DNA of 64,000 nucleotides, from contig CM059431.1 in NCBI GenBank assembly GCA_030390025.1, positions 158,474,001-158,538,000 of the forward strand, written 5' to 3'. This document shows, in pieces, positions 2,581 through 47,503 of this stretch (positions within the stretch are counted from its first letter, which is position 1; every line of letters begins with the position of its first letter). The notes under the pieces were generated by a model that saw only the letters and a list, made by a program, of their open reading frames with translations, was not told the DNA's origin and did no database searches. The translations under genes were made by a program, and so were the position numbers. The stretch comes from Squalus acanthias. Its lineage: Eukaryota.

Positions 2581-5500
2581 GAATCGGATAACTCGGGCAG
2601 TGGATAGGGCTTTAAACTAAAAAAAATGTGGGGATGTTTCAGGTGAGGGGAAATTTAGAAATTTAAAGAGAATGGTCAAGGCTATAGAGTAGTGCAGTGA
2701 TTTGAGCAAAATTAAACAGAGTGTGACAGGAAGGGACAGAATGTTTAATGGTAGCAGTGCAGCAGAGAATAAGATCAAAGCAGGGAATATAGGTAAGACA
2801 ATTAAAGTAAAGCCTCTGTATCTGAATGCATGAAGCATTTGTAACACGATTGACGAACTAGTGGCACCGACAGAGCTAAATTGGTTTGATCTAATAGCCA
2901 TTACAGTGACATGGATGCAAGTTGGCCAAGGTTGGGAACTAAATGCTCCAGGGAACTTGACGTTTCGAAAAGACAGGCAGAATGGAAAAGGAGGGGGAGT
3001 AGTCCTGATAATAAAAGATGGCATAAGGACAGTAGCGGGACAGGATCTCGGATTGGAAGATCAGGAATTAGCATTAGTGTGGGTGCTGATGAGGAATAAG
3101 AAGGTATATAAACCACTGTTAGGAGTAGTATACAGGACCCCTAACAATATCTATACTGTTGAACAGAATATTAATCAAGAAATAGGAGCTTGCAACAAAG
3201 GTAATGCAATAATCTTGGGGGACTTTAATCTTCATATATACTGGATAAATCAAATTGGCAAAGGTAGTCTGGAGGACCAGTTCATGGAATACATTTGGGA
3301 CAGTTTCCTAGAGCAATATGTCATGGAACCAATCAGGGAACATGCTATTTTAGATTTTGTATTGTGTAATGAGACAGGGTTAATTAGAAATCACATGGTA
3401 TCGGATCCACTGGGGCAGAGTTATCATAATATGATAGAATTTTACGTTAATTTTGAGAGTGACTTGCCTAAGTCCGAAACTAGTGCCTTAAACATAAATA
3501 AACCCAATTACATAGGTATGAGTGGCGAGTTGGCTGAGGTAGATTGGAAAAATAGATTAAAAGTTATGGTTCTTTGTAAGCAGTGGCTAGGATGTAAAGA
3601 TATATTCCATTATTCTCCACAAAAATGCATTCCATTGAGAAACAAAAACTCCACGGGAAATGTTATCCATCCGTGGCTAACTAAAGAAGTTTAGGATAGC
3701 ACAAGATTGAAGGAAGAACATTACAATGTTGCATAGAATAATTGTAGGCCTGAAGATTGTGAGAGTTTAAAAAACCAGCAAAGGTTGACCAAAAAATTGA
3801 TAACAAGGGGAAAAAATAGAATATGATATAAAACTAGCAAGAAATATAAAAGCAGATCTTAAGATTTTCTACAAGTATGTAAATAGGAAAATAATTAAAT
3901 GATTGTTGCATGTCCCAGCCCCTTTGGGACTATCACGGATTAGGCATATTTTCCAGATGTTCATTTTCAACTAAAGATGAGGTCGCCGAATCCTAAAGAC
4001 ACTTATCTAGGTCATAAGATCCGGTCTATCTCTCCTAAAAGGAAAGGAGCAACCCGAGAATGTTGCCGTCCTCCTGATAGCACTTTTAATAAGATTAGCC
4101 TGACTGCAACGTCCCGGATATTATGAGGGACCCGAGATCTCCACTCAGAAATGTACGTCTTCACCACAGTGTTCGCGAGATATTGATGCAGAAGATTTAT
4201 GTGAGCTAATTCTAAGAGTCTTATTAAAAGAACCGACACTCCATTTACAGTTGGTGAATCAGTCAGTCGCATCGTTAACAGATCTAAAAAGAGAAAAAAT
4301 ACAATCTTATTTTTAACACAGAATCTTATATTTCAATCTTAACTTCACTGCAATATTACAGTTCTTAAATTTTTCCATAAGGATGTCCATGAAACCAACA
4401 AGTTAGCAATTACCTGAATCCCCGAAGAACAAAAGTGTAAAGGACTACTGAAACGTCCCTGATGTCGACAATCGCTTTGCCCGATTAAAGCGAGTCTGAT
4501 TATCTCATTCGAGAATTCAATATTTATACCCTTTTTCAGTTGTATTTCATAAGGCTTCTGTTGATCCAAGTTATTTATCACAAATCATCTTTATGCTAAA
4601 CCCTGCACATCCTACTGCCACATCATCAATAGCAGTTGGGAGCTTACCATTTATGTTCATCGGCAGAAGTCCTTTACCTCACGTGTCATCCATAAGAGGA
4701 TTAATCAAGATCATTTATCCAGGGTTGACCATAGTCCTGCTTTAATATATGTATCCATTCGGGGCCAACAGTTCTGCTGTTTTAATAAGGTTACTTATTC
4801 AGGGTCAACAACTGTCCTGTTCCAACAGACAAAATTCTTTCATAGCTAGGATTCCAAATTTCCAAATCCAGCTTTTTATGTTTTAAAGCATTTATAAGGT
4901 AGTATTCCTTATAAGGTATTATTCAGGGTCAACACATGTCCTGTCTCAACAAGGCCATAATTATTTCATAGCTACAATTTCCAAATCCAAATTGTCATGT
5001 TTTTAAAGAAGGTATCAGGTAAAAATTCTTATAAGGTAGTATATTTTTCCAAAAAATTAATAAGTTAGAATTTCTTCATTTGGTTGTGTATTTTCCTAAA
5101 AATGATATAAGGTAGAATTCCTTCACAAGAGTAGCAAAAGTAAACGTTGTTCCATTAGAGGCTGAGACAGGAGAAATTATTATGGGGAATACGGAAATGA
5201 CAGAAAAGTTAAACAAATATTTTGTATCTGTCTTCACAGTAGAATACAAAATAAAAATACCGAAAATGCCATGGAACCAAGGGTCTAATGAGGGTGAGGA
5301 ACTTAACGTAATTAATAGAAGTAGAGATAATTTACGAGAGAAACTATTGGGACTAAAATCCGACAAATCCCCTGGAACTGAAGGCCTACCACTTGGGTTC
5401 TAAAAGAGGTGGCTGGAGAGATAGTTTTTTGAAGATGTAAGTAGCAGGGTAGATAAAGGGGAACGCGTAGATGTAGTATATTTGGATTTCCAAAAAGTAT

Positions 5501-9020: not shown

Positions 9021-9269
9021 TGGTCCTGTAATCTTGCCTAATCAACCCGATAATTCGGGTCTCTGTCTATGCTACCCAGCCAGGAACTTTGCTGTACATC
9101 ATCTCATTCTGAATCAGTACCTGATCCTGCAGATAGATTGCAGCACATTCAACTTGTTTGCAAACTTCTGCCAGGCGAGCTAAAGTGCCTCTTGTTGCCC
9201 TGGTTTACGCTGCCCGCCCTCTTTTGCCAGACACGGTGCACTTCAATCCTGTAGGGTGGGCTTAGTCCG

Positions 9270-11280
9270 GGGAATGTCAATGTCGGGCTGGCTGAGTGCA
9301 GTTTTGAGCAAAATGAGTGTGGTTTGGGTGTTGGGCCAGATCAGTGGAGTGTCGGTGTTGGGCTGGGTCAGTGGGGTGTCGGTGCAGGGCAGGGGCCGTG
9401 CTGTGTCGCAGTTGTGCTGGGTCAGTGGGGTGCCGGTTTGGGGCTGGGTCAATGGGGTGTCGGTGTGTGGCTCGTTCAGTGCTGTGTCGGTGTTGGGCTT
9501 GGTCAGTGGGGTGCCGGTTTGGGGCTGCGTCAGTCGGGTTTCGGTGTGAGGCTGGGTCAGTGCTGTGTCGTTGTGGGGCTGGGTCAGTGGGGTGTCGTTA
9601 TGGGGCTGGTGAGTCGGGTGTGTTTGTGTAGGGCGTGGTCCGTGGTATGTCGGTTTTGGGTTGGGTCAGTGGGCTGTCGTTGTGGGGCTGGGTCAGTTGG
9701 GTGTCGGTGTGGGGCTGTGTCAGTGGGGTGTCGGTGTGGGGTTGGTTCAGTGGTGTGTCGATGTGGGGCTGGTCAGTGGGGTGTCGGTGTGGGACTGGGG
9801 CAGTGGTGTGTCGGTGTGGGTCTGGGTCAGTGGTTTGTCGGTACGGGGCTGGGTCAGTGAGGTGTCGCTGTGGGACTGGGTCATTGGGGTGTGGGTGTGG
9901 GGCTTGGTGAGTGGGATTTCGGTGTAGGTTTGGGTCAGTGGGATATGGTGTGGGGCTGGGTCAGTGCATTTATGTGAGGGGCTGGATAAGTGGGGTATGG
10001 TGTGGGGCTGTGTCAGTGGGGTATGGTGTGGGGCTGGTTTCGTAGGGTATGGTGTGGGGTTGGGTCAGTGGGGTGTGGGTTTAGGGCTGGGTCAGTGGGG
10101 TGTCGGTGTGGGGCTGGGACTTTGGGGTATCGGTGTTGGTCTGGGTCAGTGGGGTTTCGATGTGGGGCCGTGTCAGTGGTGTGTAGGTGTAGGGCTGGGT
10201 CAGTGGGGTGTCGATATAGGGCTGGTCAGTGGGGTGTCGGTGTGGGCCTGAGTCAGTGGGGTGGCAGTGTAGTGCTGTATAAATGGGCTGTCGGTGTAGG
10301 GCTGTTGCAATGGGGTGTCGGTGTGGAGCTGGGTCAGTGGGGTGTCGAAGTGGGCCTGGGTTAGTGGCGTGTCGGAGTGGGCCTGGGTTAGTGGGGTATC
10401 TTGTGGGGCTGTGTCAATGGGGTGTCGGTGCGGGGCTGGGTCAGTGGGGTATGCTGTGGGGCTGGGTCAGTGTGTTGTGGCTGAGTTGCTGGGTCAGTGG
10501 GGTATGGTGTGGGGCTGGGTCAGTGGGGTATGGTGTGGAGCTGGGTCAGTGGGGTATGTTGTGTGTCAGGGTCAGTGGGGTATGGTGTGGGGATGCTTCC
10601 GTGGGGTATGGTGTTTGGCTGGGTCAGTGGGGTGTCGTTGTAGGGCTTGGTCAGTGGGGTTTCAATTTGGGGCTGTGTCAGTGGGATTTTGGTGTGGGCC
10701 TGGGTTAGTGGGGTATGGTGTCGGGCTGATTCCGTCGTGTGCCGGTGTAGGGCTGGTTCCGTGGTGTGTCGGTGTGGGGGTGGGTTAGCGTGGATTTGCT
10801 GTGGGCTGGGATAGTGGGGTTTGCTGTGGGGCTGTTTCAGTGGGGTATTGGTGTGGGGCTGTTTCAGTTCTGTGTCGGTGTAGAGCTGGTTCGTATGGGT
10901 ATCGAGGTTGGGCAGGCAGATTGGGGGTGTCTGTTTTGAGTCAGTGAGTGTGTCGGTTTTGGGTTTTGTCAGTGCGGTGCTGGTATAAGGGTGGGTCAGT
11001 GCGATATCTGGGATGGGTCTGTGAGGTTTTCGCTGTTCGGCAAGTTCGGTGGGGTGTCTGTGTAGGGTTGAACCAGTGGGGCTGTGTCGGTGGGGGTGCG
11101 GGGGAAGGGTTGGTGGGTGTGGGGAATGATCGGTGGAGATGGAGTTGTAGGGTCGTTGGGGGCAGGGCTGTGTCGGTGGGTGCGGGGCGGGGCTTGGTCG
11201 TTTGGGGGCGGCTTTGGGTCGCTGTGGGGCGGGTCAATGTGTGGCTAGGTCAACTGGGCGTAAGTGTTGGGCTGAACCAG
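9270..11280 (+). repeat. G/T-rich minisatellite, ~27-bp unit GGGGCTGGGTCAGTGGGGTGTCGGTGT
   Basis: Visible tandem units; 9-aa periodicity (GVSVWGWVS) in spurious ORFs. Confidence 0.95.
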
Positions 11281-11779
11281 TGGGAAGAATCAACAACAGC
11301 ACGTGAACTATCCAGGGTCGATGACAGGGCAAGCTCCGGTTTACAGAGCCTCACTGCAAAGAAAAGATGTATTTTATGGTAAGATTGATGAACAATAGGA
11401 AGAAAGGAATTGGAAGATTATGCTGATAGGGTCAGATGAAGAGGTACGTGTGGAGGTTCCTGTGAAGTATAAACACAGGCTTGGACCAGTTGAGTCGAAT
11501 GGAATGTTTCTGAGCTCTACATTCTATGTAATTCTCTGTATTAAAAAAGGGAAGCGACGGCGCTGCATTTTCTGAAGCAGTTTTTTAAAAGGAGAATATC
11601 GTAAGCTTTGCTCTAATTCTGGAAACTGCAGGAAGCAAACCCTTCCGTGGAAATGGGAGATTCTAGTCGCCCAGCCAGCAAACGTGGCATGTTTTGTTAA
11701 AGTGAAATGAGTTTAACAGTCGCTGTAACATTAAACCACAAATGAGACTTATGTATTTCAGAGGAGACAGTTTGTTCAA

Positions 11780-17847: not shown

Positions 17848-20800
17848 TGACGTAATAAAGACTCACTACAAGGCTTTAATCAACTTGTAACAAAACATGG
17901 AGGTCTAGTTAGCAGTCACTAGCTTCCTGTTTCCAGATTGTCTCTGCCCATGGTGGGCCCATGCCTGAGTATTTATACTCCCTGGACGGCGCCCCAGCTG
18001 GCCGCCCAGTAGTATTTCCTGAGTTGTTACTTGCGATTTATGACATTCTTCCTCCCTAAAAGGTTTGGAAGTCCAGTCTTCCTTTAACGGACTAGGCGGA
18101 CCAGAAATAGCCGCAGACGTTTAGCTCTCTGCTTGTGACTGGAAGGCACGTCTCCCCAGACCGTGTCCTGGTCCCTGGGTCGCTTGGCCCGTACCGGTAA
18201 GTCAGTAGAGTCCGCGTCATCTTGATCATCCTGTGGAGGACTGGGAATATCATGACTCCGGGTGCGGGTCCCCACAGGTGCTGAGCTGGCCTCATCCCGG
18301 GTCGTGGCTGGAGATTGTCCGGCGTCCTGGTTTCGGGTGGCCATCCTACGGGGAGCGTCCAGCTCCCTGAGTTGATCCGGTAGCTTTGCCGGCAGATCCC
18401 CCGATGTCCCAGGCGGGGCGTCATTTTCATAGGGGTGCGGAGTGTTGATATCATTGTCGGGGGATCCTTCATCATTCGGGCCCGTGTGACCGGTTGGGCA
18501 GGGAGCCAGATCTCGGAGCGAGACGGTGGTCTCCCGGCCATCAGGGTACCATACGTGCGCATACGTGGGGTTTACCTCCATTAACTCCACCTCGTCAACG
18601 AGAGGGTCGTTTTTGGCACACCGGACGAACCTCCGGAGTAGTACCGGGCCTGGAGCCAAAAACCATGACGGTAGGGACGTCCCATGTGTAGAGCGACGCC
18701 GGAATTTGAAGAATCGCTCATGAGGCGTGACATTAGTAGATGTGGAGAGAAGAGACCTGATAGAGTGTAACGCATCGGGGAGCACCGTTTCCCACTGCTG
18801 GTCCGGCAGGTTGCGTGACCTTAGTGCCAGACGGACAGCGTTCCAGATGATGGCATTGTATCGTTCAACCTGTCCGTTACCGATTGGGTGATATGGTGTC
18901 GTCCTACTTGAGGCGATTCCCCGTTGGGAGAGATAACTTTTAAGTTCACTCGACATAAAGGAGGGACCCCGATCAGTGTGGTTAAAATTGGCCGTCCCGC
19001 AAAGAGAAAAGACCTGATCGAGGCATTTAATTACCGTAGAGGTAAGCATATTAGGGCAGGGGAAGGCGAAGGGAAAGCGTGAATACTCGTCCACCATCGT
19101 AAGTAGTTAGGTGTTCCTTGTCGACGAAGGCAATGGCCCTTTAAAGTCTATGCTGAGCCTCTGCATAGGCTGCATTGCATGTATGAGTGAGCCATCTGAT
19201 GGGCGAAAGAATTGTGGTTTCAATTCTGCACAAATCTTACAGGAGGAGCATGTTTTCTTTACGTCCTCGGTTGAAAATGGTAGATTTTTGGAGTGCACAA
19301 AGTGCAACATGCGGGTCACACCAGGATGGCATAAGTCCATATGCAAATCCGCCAGAGTCGACGTTGACATTGAGGAGCAAAATGCCCGTGTGAAGGGGAG
19401 CAGGGGCTGTATTTTATCGAAGAAGTGTGGTATCCATTTTGCGTAATAAGCAAACATGCCAAGTGCCCGACGAAGAAAGCCGAGGTTCGTCGCGGGAGGG
19501 AGCTCCTGAAGTGGACGAAGTCGATCTGGGTCCGGTTTAATAACACCGTTGCCCACCCAGTAGCCAAGAATGTTCACCGATGGCACCGACTTCACCAATT
19601 TGGATTCGTTTAACGTTAAGTGGCGACGGCGGAGTACGTCAAAAAATCTCTGAAGATTGGCGTCATGCTCCTTTTGATCATGGCCGGCAATAGTGATATT
19701 GTCTAAATACGGAAAGGTATCCGTCAAGTTCTCTTGCAGGACTAGGCCATCCATGGCCCGTTGGAAGACGGCCACCCCATTGGTGACCCCGAATGGAAGG
19801 CGGCGAAACTGGAAAAGCCGACCATTGGCCTCAAACGCCGTATACTTCTTGTCGGAGTCTTGCAGTGGCACCTGATGGTACGCGCTTTTTAAATCGAAGG
19901 TCGAGAATACCTTGTATTTGGCAAGGTTGTTGACCATGTCATCTATGCGTGGCAGCGGGTAGGCATCCAGATCGGTATATAGAATAAAAGTCTGCGAATA
20001 ATCGATACTCAGACGTTTTTTATGTTGTTTTAAGGGATTCCTCACGATGACGACCTGAGCCCGCTAGGGAGATGAACATGGCTCGATAATACCGTCGACT
20101 AAAAGGCGAGAGATTTCCGCCTCAATAAACGCTCGATCATCTTGGCTAAAGCGCCGCAATTTGGTGGCTATGGGTTTACAGCGGAGGGGAAGATTGGCAA
20201 ACAGGGAGGGTTCACCGAGTAAGGCCGCCGAGAGTGCACAAAACGGCACCTTAGAAATGGTGAGCTCCGGCCTTGACCCTCCAAACTCAAAAGTGATCTT
20301 CTTGTGCTGCTTCTGGAAGTCCTGTCCCAGAAGCACATCGCTGCATAAGTTTGCGAGTACTCCGAGCCGGGTGGAGAGATACGTGCGGCCGTTGAGGATG
20401 AGGTTGACCAGACAGAAGCCAGAAGAATTGGTGGTCAGAGTCGTCAGAGCCATTGCAATCTCCCTGTCCGCGGGATAAATGTGCAGTTTTAACCTGTTGA
20501 CAGCCCGCTTACTAATGAAGCTGTCAGAGCTGCAGGAGTCGATTAGCGCGCTTAGAGTGTACCCATTTACTGAAATCTTCGTGGCTGCATGGGACAAACT
20601 TTGGGGAAAAACAGCCGTGATGGGAGGAGGGGCAATTTTCCCTTCGGCAACTGTAGCCTTAACAGTAGTTCTTGGGGGAGGAGCAGCTCCATAGATAGCA
20701 GCTGTGAAGCTAACAGGAGCTCTCGACCGGTATACTTTAGAGGAGCGGCCTTTCTTGTTAGCAAAGGCCCGTGACTGGCATACCTTGGAAAAGTGTCCTT

Positions 20801-22396
20801 TCTTGCTGCAATGATTGCAGGTCACATTACGAGCCGGGCAAAATTTTCTGTGATGGCACGCCCCTCCACAAAATAAGCACTTTCTTCCTGATTGCCAGGA
20901 TGCTGCTAGGGCGGGGTCGTCATCAGCGAAGGCCTCTAGGGTAGGGTCGTCGTCTGTTAGAGTAGAGTCAACATCAGTGGGGGCATCCGCCCGAGACCTA
21001 CCGAAAGACTCATTAAAGGAGATAGCCGCCGCCCGTGCACGTGGTGGGAGATAAGTGTCTGCATTCTTCTTGGCCAAGTCCAAGGAACACGCCTGGTCAT
21101 AAGCAGCCCGTAAATTGAGGGTTTTATTTTCCAGCAGGCGCTGACGTATAAAAGGGGACGCGATTACATTGATAAAGGATTCGCGGATTAGTTCCTCTTG
21201 ATACTGTTCAGCTGAAACTGCTTTAAGGTTACAATCCTTGCTGAGCCTGCGAAGTTTCTGGAGAAATTCATCGAGTGATTCCCCAGGCTGCTGCCGAGTT
21301 GTGGCCAGTAGGTGTCGAGCAAAGATTTCATTTGGGGACTTGACATATAGCTGCTGTAAGATTTCGATAGCAGTGTCATAGTCTATACAGTCCTCAATAC
21401 AATCATACACATGAGGAGACACGTAGTTGATAAGCATTCGTAACTTATTAGGGACATCCGCCCCACATTCTTCAAGAAAGTTGCTAAAGGTACGAAACCA
21501 ATGCTTCCATTCCTTTGCTGCCGCAGGTGCATTCGGGTCCAGGTCGAGACGAGCGGGTCTAAGGAGTTTTTCCATGATGGATCAGTTTCTTGCCCAAGTT
21601 CTCTTCTGTGGTTCGAGTTGCAGCTGGTTGTTCCGAATCACCCAAAGCGTGGAGACGATATCAAGTTGATTAAATTGACGTAATAAAGACTCACTACGCA
21701 CTTGAACATAAAGCAAGGCTTTAATCAACTTGTAACAAAACATGGAGGTCTAGTTAGCAGTCACGAGCTTCCTGTTTCCAGATTGTCTCTGCCCAAGGTG
21801 GGCCCATGCCTGAGTATTTATACTCCCTGGAGGGCGCCCCAGCTGGCCGCCCAGTAGAACTTCCTGAGTTGTTACTTGCGATTTATGACAGGTTGTGTAT
21901 TTTTCTGCAAATGTTATAAGGTAGAATTCCTTCACAAGAGTAGCAAAAGTAAACGTTGTTCCATTAGAGGCTGAGACAGGAGAAATTATTATTGCGAATA
22001 TGGAACTGACAGAAAAGTTAAACAAATATTTTGTATCTGTCGTCACAGTAGAAGACACAAAAAAAATACCGAAAATGGCATGGAACCAAGGGTCTAATGA
22101 GGGTGAGGATCTTAACGTAATTAATAGAAGTAGAGATAATTTACGAGAGAAACTAATGGGACTAAAAGCCGCGAATTCACCTGGAACTGAAGGCCTACCA
22201 CCTAGGGTTCTAAAAGAGGTAGCTGGAGAGATAGTGGATGCATTGGTTTTGATCTGGCCAAATTCCCTCGATTCTAGAATGGTCCCATTGGATAGGAAGA
22301 TCGGAAATGTAACACCGCTATTCAAGAAAGGAGGCAGAGAAAGAAAACAGTGAACTACTTGGCACTCAACTGAGTTGTTACTTGCGATTTATGACA
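17848..22396 (-). mobile_element. Gypsy/Ty3 LTR retrotransposon copy 1 (Mag-like gag with two CCHC knuckles), 5-bp TSD ATCAT
   Basis: LTRs TG..CA at 17848-18045 and 21676-21890, plus a 27-bp LTR end at 22370-22396; PPT at 18046-18057; ATCAT at 17843-17847 and 22397-22401; domain order gag-PR-RT-IN. Confidence 0.95.
18084..21575 (-). pseudogene. Gypsy gag-pol polyprotein, one frame with stops at 20064 and 19107; RNase H apparently deleted
   Basis: Gag CLFCGGACHHRKFC and CNHCSKKGHFSKVC; protease LIDSCS; RT YPLPRID, FDLKSAYHQV, LPFGV, YLDN; integrase H..H..C..C, DFKGP, HTDRG, GQVER. Confidence 0.92.
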
Positions 22397-22859
22397 ATCA
22401 TTACTCTGTATTACAGTGATTCCTTCCTTTATTAACATAGCCACCCCACCTCCCCTTCCTTCCTGCCTTTCCTTCCTGATCGTTAAATAACCTGGTATGT
22501 TTAATTCCCAGGCATTGTCACCCTGCAGCCATGTTTCTGTAATGGCCACAATATCATAACCATATGTAGTTATTTGTGCCATTAACTCGTCTATTTTGTT
22601 ACGAATGCTACGTGCATTCAGATAGAGAACTTTTCAATATGCTTTGTGGCACTTAGATCCTGCTTTTTCACTTTTTACCACTTTACCTTTTACTCCACAC
22701 ACTCTGCCCCTTCCTGCCATGCTCTATTTGTGATTCCCCTACTGCTACCTATGTCTATGACCCTCTCTGTTGTCATTTTTATTTTTTGCTCTCTTGAAAC
22801 CTCCCCCCCACTAATTAGTTTAAAGCCCTCTCCACAGCCCTAGTTATTCGATTCGCCAG

Positions 22860-43249: not shown

Positions 43250-46200
43250 GCATTTTTTATTTGTTACTGGGATGTAGGCGTCGCTGACAATGCCAGGATT
43301 TATTGGCCATCCCTAATTGGCATTGTGAAGGTGGTGGTGAGCTGCTTCCTTGAACTGCTGCAGTCCGTGTAGTGAAGGTACTCCCACAGTGCTGTATGGT
43401 AAGGAGTTGCCGGATTTTGACCTAGCGACGATGAAGGATCGAAGTTAGGACGGTGTGTGACTTGGAGGGGAAACTTGGAGATGGTGGTGTTCCCAGCCGC
43501 CTGCTGCCCTTGTCCTTCTAGGTGGAAGAGTTCGCGGGTTTGGGAGGTGCTGCCGATGAATTATTGGCGAGTTCCTGCAGTGCATCTTGTAGATGGCACA
43601 GACTGCAGCCACGGTACGCCGGTGGCGATGGGAGTGAATGTTTAAGTTGGTTGATGGGGTGCCAATCAAGCGGGCTTCTTTGTCCTGGAATGTGTCGAGC
43701 TTCTTGAGCGTAGTTGGAGCTGCACTCATCCAGGCAAGTGGAAAATATTCCATCACACTCCTTACTTGTGCCTTGTAGATGGTGGAAAGGATTCGGGCTG
43801 TCAGGAGGCGAGACACTCGCCTCAGAATACCCAGCCTCTAACCTGCTATTGTTGCCACAATATTTATTTGGCTGGTCCACTTAAGTTTATGGTCAACGGT
43901 GACCCCCGGAATGTTGATGGTGGGGGATTCAGCGATGGTAATGTCGTTGAATTTCAAGAGTAAGTGGATCGACTCGCGCTTGTTGGAGATAGTCATTTCC
44001 TGGCAAATCTGTGGCGTGAATGTTACCTGCCACTTATCACCCTTGGCCAGAGCGCCGTCCAGGTCTTTTTGCATGTCCGCCTGGACTGCTTCATTATCTG
44101 AGGAGTTGTGAATGGCGCTGAACACTGAGCATTCTTCAGCGAATATAACTATTGCAGACCTTATGTTGGAGGGAAGTTCATTGATGAAGCAGCTGAGAAT
44201 GATTGGGTCTAGGACACTTCGCTGAGGAACTCCTGCAGCGATGTCCTGGGGTTGTGATGATTGACCTTCATCCACCACAACCATCTTCCTTTGTGCTAGG
44301 TATGTCTCCAGTAGGTACAGAGTTTTCCACCCGATTCCCATTGACTTCAGTTTGATTAAGTCTCCTTGATTCCACACTCAGTCAAATGCTGCCTTGATGT
44401 CAAGTGCAGTGATTCTCACATCACCTCTGGAATTCAGCTCCTTTGTCCATGTTTGCATCAAGGCTATAATGAGTTTGGGAGGCGAGTGGTCTTGGCGGAA
44501 CCAAACTGGATATCAGTGAGCAGGTTATTGGCGATTAAGTTCCGCTTGATACCACTGTCGATGACGACTTCCAGATTGCTGTTGAGTGACAGTAAACTGA
44601 TGGGGCACTAATTGGCCAGGTTGGATTTGTCCTGATTTTTGTAGACAGAACACACCTGTGCAGTGTTCCAGTCAGATATACATAGATACATAGATACATA
44701 GAAGATAGGAGCAGGAGAAGGCCATCCGGCCCTTCGAGCCTGCTCCGCCATTTAATGAGATCATGGCTGATCCTCCAATTCAGTATCCCGTCCCCGCCTT
44801 CTCTCCGTAACCCTTAACCCCTTTTGCCTGTAGAAATATATCTAATTCCCTCTTAAATATATTTAATGAGCTGGCGTACACTGCCCTCTGTGGCAATGAG
44901 TTCCACAGGTTCACCACCCTCTGAGTGAAGAAATTCCCCCTCATTTGTGTCCTAAATGGTTTAGCCCTTATCCTTAAATTATGTCCTCTAGTTCTGTTCT
45001 CACCCGCCAAGGGAAACATTCCTTCTGCATCTAGTCTGTCTAGACCTGTCAGAATTTTATACACTTCTATGAGGTCCCCTCTCAATCTTCTAAACTCCAG
45101 TGTGTACATCCCTAAACTACATAGTCTCTCCTCATAGGTCAATCCCGCCATTCCTGGTATCAGCCTGGTGAATCGCCGCTGCACCCCCTCCATGGCAAGA
45201 ACATCTTTCCTCAGATGAGGCGCCCAAAACTGTACACAGTACTCAAGGTGTGGTCTCACCAGTGCCCTGTACAGCTGCAGCAAGGTATCCCTGTTCCTGT
45301 ATTCCAAACCTTTTGCTATGAAGGCCAGCATACCGTTTGCCTTCTTGACCGCCTGTTGCACCTGCATGCTCGCCTTCAGTGACTGGTGTACAAGAACACC
45401 CAGGTCTCTCTGTACTTCCCCCTCTCCCAATTTATTGCCATTTAAATAATAATTTGCCCTCCCGTTCCTGCACCCAAGGTGGATAACTTCGCACTTGTCC
45501 ACATTATAGTGCATCTGCCATTTATCCGCCCAATCACCCAGTCTGTCCAAATCGCTCTGGAGCTTCCTGGTCTCCTCCTCTGAGCCCACCCCCCCTCCTA
45601 GTTTAGTGTCGTCTGCAAATTTGGAAATGCTGCATTCGACTCCCTGATCCAGGTCATTAATATAAATTGTGAACAGCTGGGGACCCAGGACAGATCCCTG
45701 TGGTACCCCACTTGTTACTGCCTGCCATTCAGAAAATGAGCCGTTTATTCCAACTCTCTGTTTTCTATCTGACAGCCAGTTCTCTATCCACGTCAATATT
45801 TACCCCTTTATCCCATGAGCTTCAATTTTCCATGCTAATCTTTTATGTGGGACCTTGTCGAAGGCCTTTTGGAAGTCCAGGTACACCACATCTACTGGCT
45901 CTCCCCCATCTATTTTACCAGTTACTCCCTCAAAAAATTCCAATACATTAGTCAAGCACGATTTACCCTTTGTAAATCCATGTTGACTCTGTCCTATCCT
46001 GTCCCCAATTGCTAAGTGCTCCGCTATTTCATCCTTAATGATGGACTCCAGCATTTTGCCCACAACTGATGTAAGGCTTACAGGTCTGTAATTACCTGCT
46101 TTTTCCCTACCCCCCTTTTTGAATAGTGGGGTAACGTTAGCTACCCTCCAATCCATGGGCACTGTTCCCGAGTCTAATGAATTCTGAAAAATCATACTTA

Positions 46201-47503
46201 GTGCATCCGCTATCTCTAGGGCCACCTCCTTCAGTACCCTAGGATGCATGTTATCAGGCCCTGGTAATTTGTCCGCCTTCAATCCCTTTAGCTTCCTTAA
46301 CACCATATCCTTAGAGATATTGATTTGCGTCAGTTCCTCCTTTGCCCATGTCCCTATTTTTCCCGATATCCCAGGGAGGTTTTTTGTGTCTTCCTTCGTA
46401 AAGACTGACCCAAAGTATGCATTTAGTTGGTCTGCCATTTCCTCATTTCCCGTTATATATTCCCCCGTATCTGACTGCAATGGACCAACTTTGGTTTTCA
46501 CCAGTCTTTTCCTCTTGATATACTTATAAAAGCTTTTGGAGTTAGTTTTTATATTTTCCGCCAGCTTGCTTTCGTAAGCTATTTTGCCCCTCTTGATTAA
46601 GCCCTTTGTCCTCCTTTGCTCTATCTTAAACCGTTCCCAATCTTCCACTCTGGCGCTTTTTTTGGCTATTTTATACGCCCTATCTTTGGATTTTATGCTG
46701 TCTCTAATTTCCCCTGTTATCCACGGTTGAGTCACCTTTTTAGATTTCCTTTTATGCCAGATTGGTATAAACAATTTTTGCAATTTTGTCATTCTATCTT
46801 TAAATGCTTGCCATTGTTTATCTACCTCCAGTCCTCCCAGGAACGTTGTCCAATCAGACCTACTCAGTTCCCGTCTAATGGCATCATAATTCCCCTTGTT
46901 TAAATTCAGGACCTTAGTCTCTGAGTCAATTTCTTCGCTGTCCATTTCAAGTGAGAAATCGATCATGTTATGATCGCTCTGACCCAAGGGTCCCCGTACA
47001 ACAAGATTACTAATTAGTCCCTTCTCATTGCACAGTACCCAGTCCAATATAGCCTGTTCCCGAGTTGGTTCCTCGACATATTGGTCCAGATAACCATCCC
47101 TTAAACACTCAAGGAATTTCTCCTCCTCATTATTTTTACTGATTAGGCTAGTCCAATCTATATGTAAGTTAAAGTCACCTATGATGACAGCTGTGCTCTT
47201 ATTGCACGCTTCTCTAATTTCCCTCGTGATGCCCTCCCCAACCTCTATTTTACTATTTGGAGGCCTATATACCACTCCTATTAATGTTTTTCGCCCCTCG
47301 CTATTTCTTAGCTCCACCCATGTAGATTCTGTATTAACTGAGTTAATATCCTTCCTTTCAATTGCATTTATCCCCTCTTTTACCAGCAATGCTACCAGAG
47401 TTGTAGCTGTACTGGAACAGCTTACAGAGAGGCACGGCTGGTTATGGAGCACAAGTCCTCAGCACGATATCCGGGATGTTGTCGGGGCCCATTGCCTTTG
47501 TGG
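43250..47503 (-). mobile_element. Zenon-like CR1-group LINE nested in L2 and split by a CR1 (pieces ~43250-44670 and ~47396-47503)
   Basis: IYKAQVRSVMEYFPLAWMSAAPTTLKKLD; AGVPQRSVL. Confidence 0.78.
44673..47395 (-). mobile_element. Young 5'-truncated CR1; ORF2 open except for one in-frame TAA at 45800
   Basis: ORFs 45800-47452 and 44780-45796 are in the same frame (HGIKG*ILTWIEN); (ATAGATAC)n tail. Confidence 0.93.

Follow-up and report, generated by a model that had tools for sequence, protein, structure and literature searches.

Complementarity between the primer-binding site and the LTR poly(A) signal points to a probable variant form of self-priming in an animal Gypsy clade

In LTR elements, the right end of the LTR is fixed by the minus-strand primer, so the 3′ end of this primer must adjoin the CA that ends the LTR. 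A Ty3/Gypsy element in the window, by which we mean the entire 64,000-nt stretch of DNA that was analyzed, raises the question of what this primer could be. As a sequence-only reading of the locus had noticed, the 5′ LTR is followed by an A and then by a primer-binding site (PBS) that lacks TGG, and we likewise found no tRNA-type PBS at this position.

The element lies on the minus strand, as do its own features given below, and is recognizable as Ty3/Gypsy from its gag-PR-RT-RH-IN order, its TG...CA LTRs, its polypurine tract and its target-site duplication, with the RT of Ty3 being its top PDB match; its gag motifs are, presumably, Mag-like. The 215-nt 5′ LTR (21676..21890, TGTCA...CGTCA) precedes regions encoding gag with two CCHC knuckles, protease and the start of RT, as far as an in-frame stop (20064..21575); RT with the motif YLDN, an RNase H that is largely deleted at ~19397 and the integrase zinc finger (19107..20063); and an integrase core and tail without a chromodomain (18084..19106). 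The polypurine tract AGGGAGGAAGAA (18046..18057), the 3′ LTR (17848..18045) and the 3′ copy of the target site (17847-17843) complete the element. The window copy is broken: besides the stop (20064-20066), it has lost 450 nt over RNase H (at ~19397) and 17 nt of the 3′ LTR downstream of the poly(A) hexamer. Young full-length copies of the family are 4510 nt long with a single 1313-aa ORF and mostly 5-nt target duplications, the mean LTR-LTR identity is 99.3% (61 pairs), and 1153 candidate copies were obtained at first look. The stretch was present in three of four contigs from sequencing runs; none had a loose end at a start, an end or a poly(A) site, so they do not bear on the RNA termini.

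The first 27 nt of the LTR are duplicated together with the 5′ target-site copy ATGAT at 22370..22401, and 479 nt of other DNA separates this duplicate from the full 5′ LTR (region 21891-22401); 345 of the 479 nt are 93% like window positions 5082-5425, and the interruption is a local rearrangement that occurred after insertion. A near-identical copy with an identical 8-nt upstream flank (L002, G000:C7:158540810-158541139) lies ~45 kb off, just past the window, and is probably a segmental duplication. The window also holds a degenerate 27-nt G/T-rich tandem array (~9250-11300) and LINE fragments with endonuclease and RT domains (2834-3694 and 44780-47458), and the Gypsy element seems to have inserted in such a LINE.

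The PBS, TTTAATCAACTTG (21674-21662), begins one base (A, 21675) past the terminal CA of the 5′ LTR, and its 13 nt are the perfect complement of an LTR segment, CAAGTTGATTAAA (21732-21720), whose final part is an ATTAAA poly(A) hexamer (21725-21720). This exact complementarity had been claimed from the sequence alone, and its coordinates were confirmed to the base. The two arms are separated by a 45-nt loop made up of the remaining R, U5 and the single spacer base (21675..21719), with pairing stopping at both sides of the 13 bp; the loop contains a 9-bp hairpin close to the LTR end, which is not kept across families. A second copy of the primer segment is located in the 3′ LTR (17887-17875).

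Chance or an artefact of a single copy could in principle account for such a match, and both were refuted by the comparisons that we made. A 13-bp match never arose when the final 200 nt of the LTR were shuffled 2000 times with dinucleotides preserved (mean 4.7), and 53 control LTR ends that adjoin host DNA gave 8 bp at most. Pairing was intact in all 30 of the best DNA matches and in 27 of 30 copies chosen through gag only, the remaining three having 6, 7 and 10 bp, and hundreds of copies and nine families carry it. When folded locally, the stem had a mean pair probability of 0.92 in the window and of 0.89-0.98 in the eight families folded, while the whole 226-nt leader folds no better than its shuffles (z 0.12).

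The nine families are those in which the 5′ junction is readable: three from the own genome, two from metagenomes (among 10 loci) and four from contigs filed in MAGs (among 5 loci). The six from metagenomes and MAG contigs were selected on protein motifs alone; family 3 from the own genome was not a blind pick. Loci L062, L066 and L067 were counted as one element with L068, and L388 was put in the family of L387. We excluded L063 and L065, whose contigs start inside gag, and L064/L069/L070, which represent one decayed element without a gag start in which no junction was found. Protein and pattern searches yielded no further own-genome families, and no relative was found in the viral contigs scanned. 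L384-L388 are whole elements from contigs that had been assigned to bacterial MAGs and, in two cases, had assembled into circles; they are probably host contamination.

All nine families have a complement of 10-14 bp at an offset of 1 nt from CA, in line with the earlier remark that the pairing would place a 3′ end one base from the LTR edge, and the complementarity is thus kept in these related families. The complement ends at the last A of AATAAA or ATTAAA in all families, or one A further in L384, and the loop between the arms measures 21-51 nt; in family 3 the pairing comprises 11 bp. Covariation of PBS and LTR, which had been put forward as a check, was evident across families. Pairing positions -1 to -10 were Watson-Crick in 80 of 80 cells (eight families tabulated), and compensatory double changes were observed at positions -5, -7, -11, -12, -13 and -14 among seven in-register families and at position -8 in a diverged family-1 copy (L391), for a total of seven pairing positions. 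Each PBS found its best partner in its own LTR in seven of eight rows, the exception being L061, whose PBS matches 11 nt at another place in the LTR of family 2.

The tested families share 45-89% RT identity, and in a rough midpoint-rooted RT tree their common ancestor contains all 148 rows. Gag-protease homologues with 37-53% full-length identity occur in molluscs, crustaceans, cnidarians, echinoderms and hagfish, with further RT homologues in tunicate, nematode, ray and catshark entries. At the level of sequence, the PBS-LTR pairing is a real, clade-wide feature.

Family 2 had 271 perfect PBS junctions and five loci with a two-mismatch PBS. These five were considered as a lineage that moves without full pairing and were rejected as such, since the linked U5 change is present only in the 5′ LTR and not in the 3′ LTR; we read their mismatches as a change after insertion. 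In L417, only the PBS is altered, to the letter of the L391 type, which fits copying of a partner's primer and equally fits one point mutation. A further family-2 LTR (L281, G000:C1:251902732-251905747) has an inverted duplication that begins within the primer segment and includes a PBS-like complement, and is possibly a fold-back product.

What, then, anneals to this PBS? The sequence beside CA tracks each family's own LTR, a pattern that a conserved host tRNA could not produce. The longest exact match of the PBS to 69 own-genome tRNA genes, which include only five clear isotypes, was 6 nt, and because the PBS has no TGG it does not match the CCA end of a tRNA; the earlier observation that a tRNA PBS is missing survived this narrow comparison. 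A working definition of self-priming (PMC6317226) asks for a complement of at least 10 bp in the 5′ LTR to a region starting 0-5 nt past the LTR, which both the window copy (13 bp at offset 1) and all nine families (10-14 bp at offset 1) have. Its second part is the lack of a match to the 3′ end or a half of a tRNA, for which the 69 genes compared gave 6 nt at most.

We considered whether the stem merely hides the 5′ poly(A) signal while some host RNA or tRNA fragment acts as the primer. The hexamer does lie within the stem in all nine families, half-tRNA primers exist in Copia lineages (PMC6317226), and 69 genes make a small tRNA comparison set. Masking alone, however, would not call for the stem to stop at precisely 1 nt from the LTR edge in each of the families, and the letters of the PBS vary with the LTR of each family, which a conserved host RNA could not track; besides the 6-nt maximum among tRNA genes, Rfam gave no match within 21500-21950. 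We therefore regard a host RNA primer as unlikely.

An even less probable option, which we would be surprised to see borne out, is that the stem-loop is a positioning signal for a primer-free or protein-primed start at the LTR edge, perhaps tied to an unusual RT motif; we know of no precedent among LTR elements for either kind of initiation. The window RT has YLDN rather than YxDD at its active site (~19695-19706), as do most of its relatives in having YxDN (115 of the 135 homologues that reach the motif). The same D-to-N change in Ty1 leaves polymerase activity but abolishes transposition (PMC2148107), so the RT may work differently here. Against such a start, 20 of the 135 homologues have YxDD, and strict covariation with a fixed 1-nt offset is what an annealed primer predicts. 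The family has transposed recently despite YLDN, and a link between the YxDN motif and priming is speculation. Taken together, the comparisons indicate that the element very probably primes itself, by whatever route.

A putative TATA box, TATAAATA (21822-21815), starts 90 nt before the start of the primer segment; families 1 and 2 have kept both the box and its flanking sequence, and family 3 has GATAAATA. An A is found at TATA+32 in all three own-genome families, 58, 57 and 42 nt before the segment, and transcription of the window element is predicted to start at this A (21790), ~58 nt upstream of the segment. With the TATA so placed, the RNA of the own-genome families probably does not begin with the segment, which agrees with the sequence-only reading. 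In five distant families there was no canonical TATA within 120 nt, so that their start could be near the segment, and the upstream start may not hold clade-wide.

The same stem is likely to have a second function. A PBS follows the 5′ LTR but not the 3′ LTR, so the pairing would hide the 5′ poly(A) signal, a role that the sequence-only reading had also suggested.

To examine which copy of the segment could prime, we turned to changes shared by both LTRs of an element, which are shared because they were made during reverse transcription or inherited. We scored 67 full-length family-1 copies out of 77 loci examined and found 14 non-CpG alleles shared by both LTRs, three of which are at -3, -2 and -1 of the predicted start; among these 67 copies, no point change confined to one LTR occurred at -3 to -1. 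The concentration has p ~0.001 against the whole LTR and ~0.05 against the spacer between TATA and start, a stretch in which shared changes abound and which holds 7 of the 14 alleles; the 3-nt interval was picked post hoc, with the start position set beforehand. At -1, a C>G change was present in both LTRs of 3 of the 67 copies, in two lineages without a common internal variant. These are probably two events, although a single event spread through recombination could give the same pattern.

A C>G change at this position is a reported mark of read-through of the cap at minus-strand transfer in MLV and HIV-1 (PMC11998490). The footprint, which amounts to a handful of events, suggests that synthesis of minus-strand DNA continues as far as the cap. 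For the -1 C>G change to arise, the template has to be unbroken from the PBS to the cap, and cleavage of that RNA behind its own 5′ hexamer would interrupt it. Elsewhere, the absence of shared changes after the hexamer was not significant (p 0.72), and family 3 showed no footprint in 30 copies and already has G at -1. In family 2, positions -2, -1 and +1 of the predicted start are among the most variable, but they overlap TAG sites, which mutate fast here, and only five elements have both LTRs scorable.

Two side observations concern the mutability of these LTRs. When the paired LTRs of own-genome copies are compared, T and A in CTAG show differences at ~8 times the frequency of other non-CpG sites (10 of 488 versus 59 of 24278 site-copies), which is close to that of CpG, and this excess may reflect a mutation hot spot or biased gene conversion. 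In addition, 388 family-2 LTRs have CCGAGTAG in place of CCTAGTAG, many of them close to contig ends.

The copy-level footprints weakly point to a primer derived from the 3′ repeat or from a second RNA. Because the footprint is weak, we give about an even chance to the proposal that the primer annealing to this PBS comes from the 3′ R copy of the segment or from a co-packaged second RNA, rather than from the RNA's own 5′ end. According to this proposal, the 5′ copy of the segment would pair with the PBS in nascent RNA and hide the 5′ AUUAAA, while the 3′ copy, which has no PBS behind it, would be polyadenylated. Within the particle, the 3′ R or a partner RNA would supply an identical copy, which would exchange onto the PBS and be cut or trimmed directly after ...AAA, probably by the element's RNase H, a domain that full-length copies contain, to yield a 3′-OH one base from the LTR edge. 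Minus-strand DNA would then copy U5 and R up to the cap and transfer there, a step to which the weak footprints refer. Plus-strand copying of the retained primer would produce an overlap for the second transfer, which would help to keep the PBS and LTR matched. A difficulty for this route is that the 5′ copy is nearer to the PBS and would need to be displaced.

Alternatively, the 5′ copy could remain on the PBS and be cut in cis after ...AAA by RNase H, in a Tf1-like manner, such that a capped 5′ fragment of ~71 nt primes and a strong-stop DNA of 21-51 nt jumps by means of only the stretch between the hexamer and the poly(A) site. This arrangement has a direct precedent in Tf1 and Tj1, which are primed by a 5′ segment of their mRNA and for which a site of cleavage has been proposed (PMC4600332), and the high pair probability predicted for the local stem in eight families also suits it. 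Linkage in family 2 (121 copies) is a further point in its favor, as U3 and early-R markers go together with r2 of 0.70-0.83 while post-hexamer markers go with the leader (0.56-0.61); this linkage is nevertheless explained equally well by descent, with no informative U3/U5 recombinant among the family-2 copies. A cut in cis, moreover, cannot yield the -1 C>G change in both LTRs, since the copied template would end at the hexamer, and loops of 21 and 24 nt would result in very short strong-stop DNA. The three-duplex pretzel of Tf1/sushi is not conserved either: a U5-end stem of at least 7 bp is found in 3 of 10 representatives, and the helix after the PBS has 5-6 bp with G-U pairs. We accordingly consider a cut in cis possible but rather doubtful, and retain the 3′-repeat or partner-RNA primer as the working proposal.

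The broadest form of that proposal, which in our estimate falls somewhat short of an even chance, is that a large animal Gypsy clade with a YxDN RT has a third way of starting reverse transcription. The 3′ region of the genomic RNA, or a partner RNA, would be trimmed to the hexamer and act as the primer, and one 10-14-nt segment would silence the 5′ poly(A) site, direct 3′ end formation and prime cDNA.

Among Gypsy elements, self-priming is regarded as characteristic of Tf1/sushi chromoviruses, whose primer sits at the RNA 5′ end. A separate and abundant clade of animal elements primed by the poly(A)-signal segment would have become free of host tRNA independently. PBS-based annotation would miss these elements, and they should lie beyond silencing by 3′ tRNA fragments. 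A primer taken from the 3′ repeat or from a partner RNA would amount to a priming route that we have not found described. Given a short RNA structure and a young, numerous family, transcript starts and strong-stop ends are directly measurable. We found no paper on priming in this clade, although subscription papers, Repbase reports or supplements could contain an earlier note.

Several known groups share part of these features. Mag-lineage Gypsy elements (Mag, SURL and the C-clade) and the unplaced MolGy clades occur in marine animals and resemble the present elements in their compact size, single ORF and short LTRs, which average 174 nt in Mag C (PMC3601003), but the RT motif here is mostly YxDN. 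The Atlas clusters for gag are Retrotrans_gag only, and the main text of PMC6238403 does not mention a PBS, tRNA or self-priming. The fungal GalEa elements, with their 'conserved hairpin site', and bivalve TRIMs also lack a canonical PBS, and a hairpin has been proposed as its substitute (PMC5445492, PMC6934838); in the accounts given there, however, the inverted repeats sit in the internal domain and no LTR complement was found. Self-priming outside chromoviruses has been predicted for the plant Ty1/Copia TAR lineage (Houba, Osr-1), and the Tcn1 clade was included by the same definition of at least 10 bp (PMC6317226). The former belongs to Copia and the latter to the chromoviruses; plants were the hosts surveyed for both, and we found no primer assigned to the poly(A) signal in that survey.

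The closest parallel is with Tf1/Tf2 of Schizosaccharomyces pombe, Tj1, Tosmo1-3 and the other Tf1/sushi chromoviruses, which have the Ty3/Gypsy domain order, no tRNA PBS, and a PBS complementary to their own LTR-derived RNA (PMC4600332, bioRxiv 2022.12.06.519325). The elements analyzed here differ in that the predicted transcript starts 42-58 nt before the segment, which has the poly(A) hexamer at its end. They have not kept the pretzel, and the footprints lean toward transfer at the cap. They also have no chromodomain: Chromo and SH3_Tf2-1 gave no match in one full-length copy (E at most 0.1) or in 40 homologues (E at most 1e-4), and this result in 0 of 41 proteins upholds the earlier statement that the element is not a chromovirus. 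Own-genome matches to SH3_Tf2-1 were tried as sushi controls and were unusable, their RTs being distant (25-31% identity). The element probably works like the Tf1/sushi self-primers without membership in that group, and the suggestion of a self-priming route different from that of Tf1/sushi was supported as an interpretation, with the footprints weakly favoring a 3′-repeat or second-RNA primer. We conclude that this clade very probably primes itself, in a variant form that differs from the known types.
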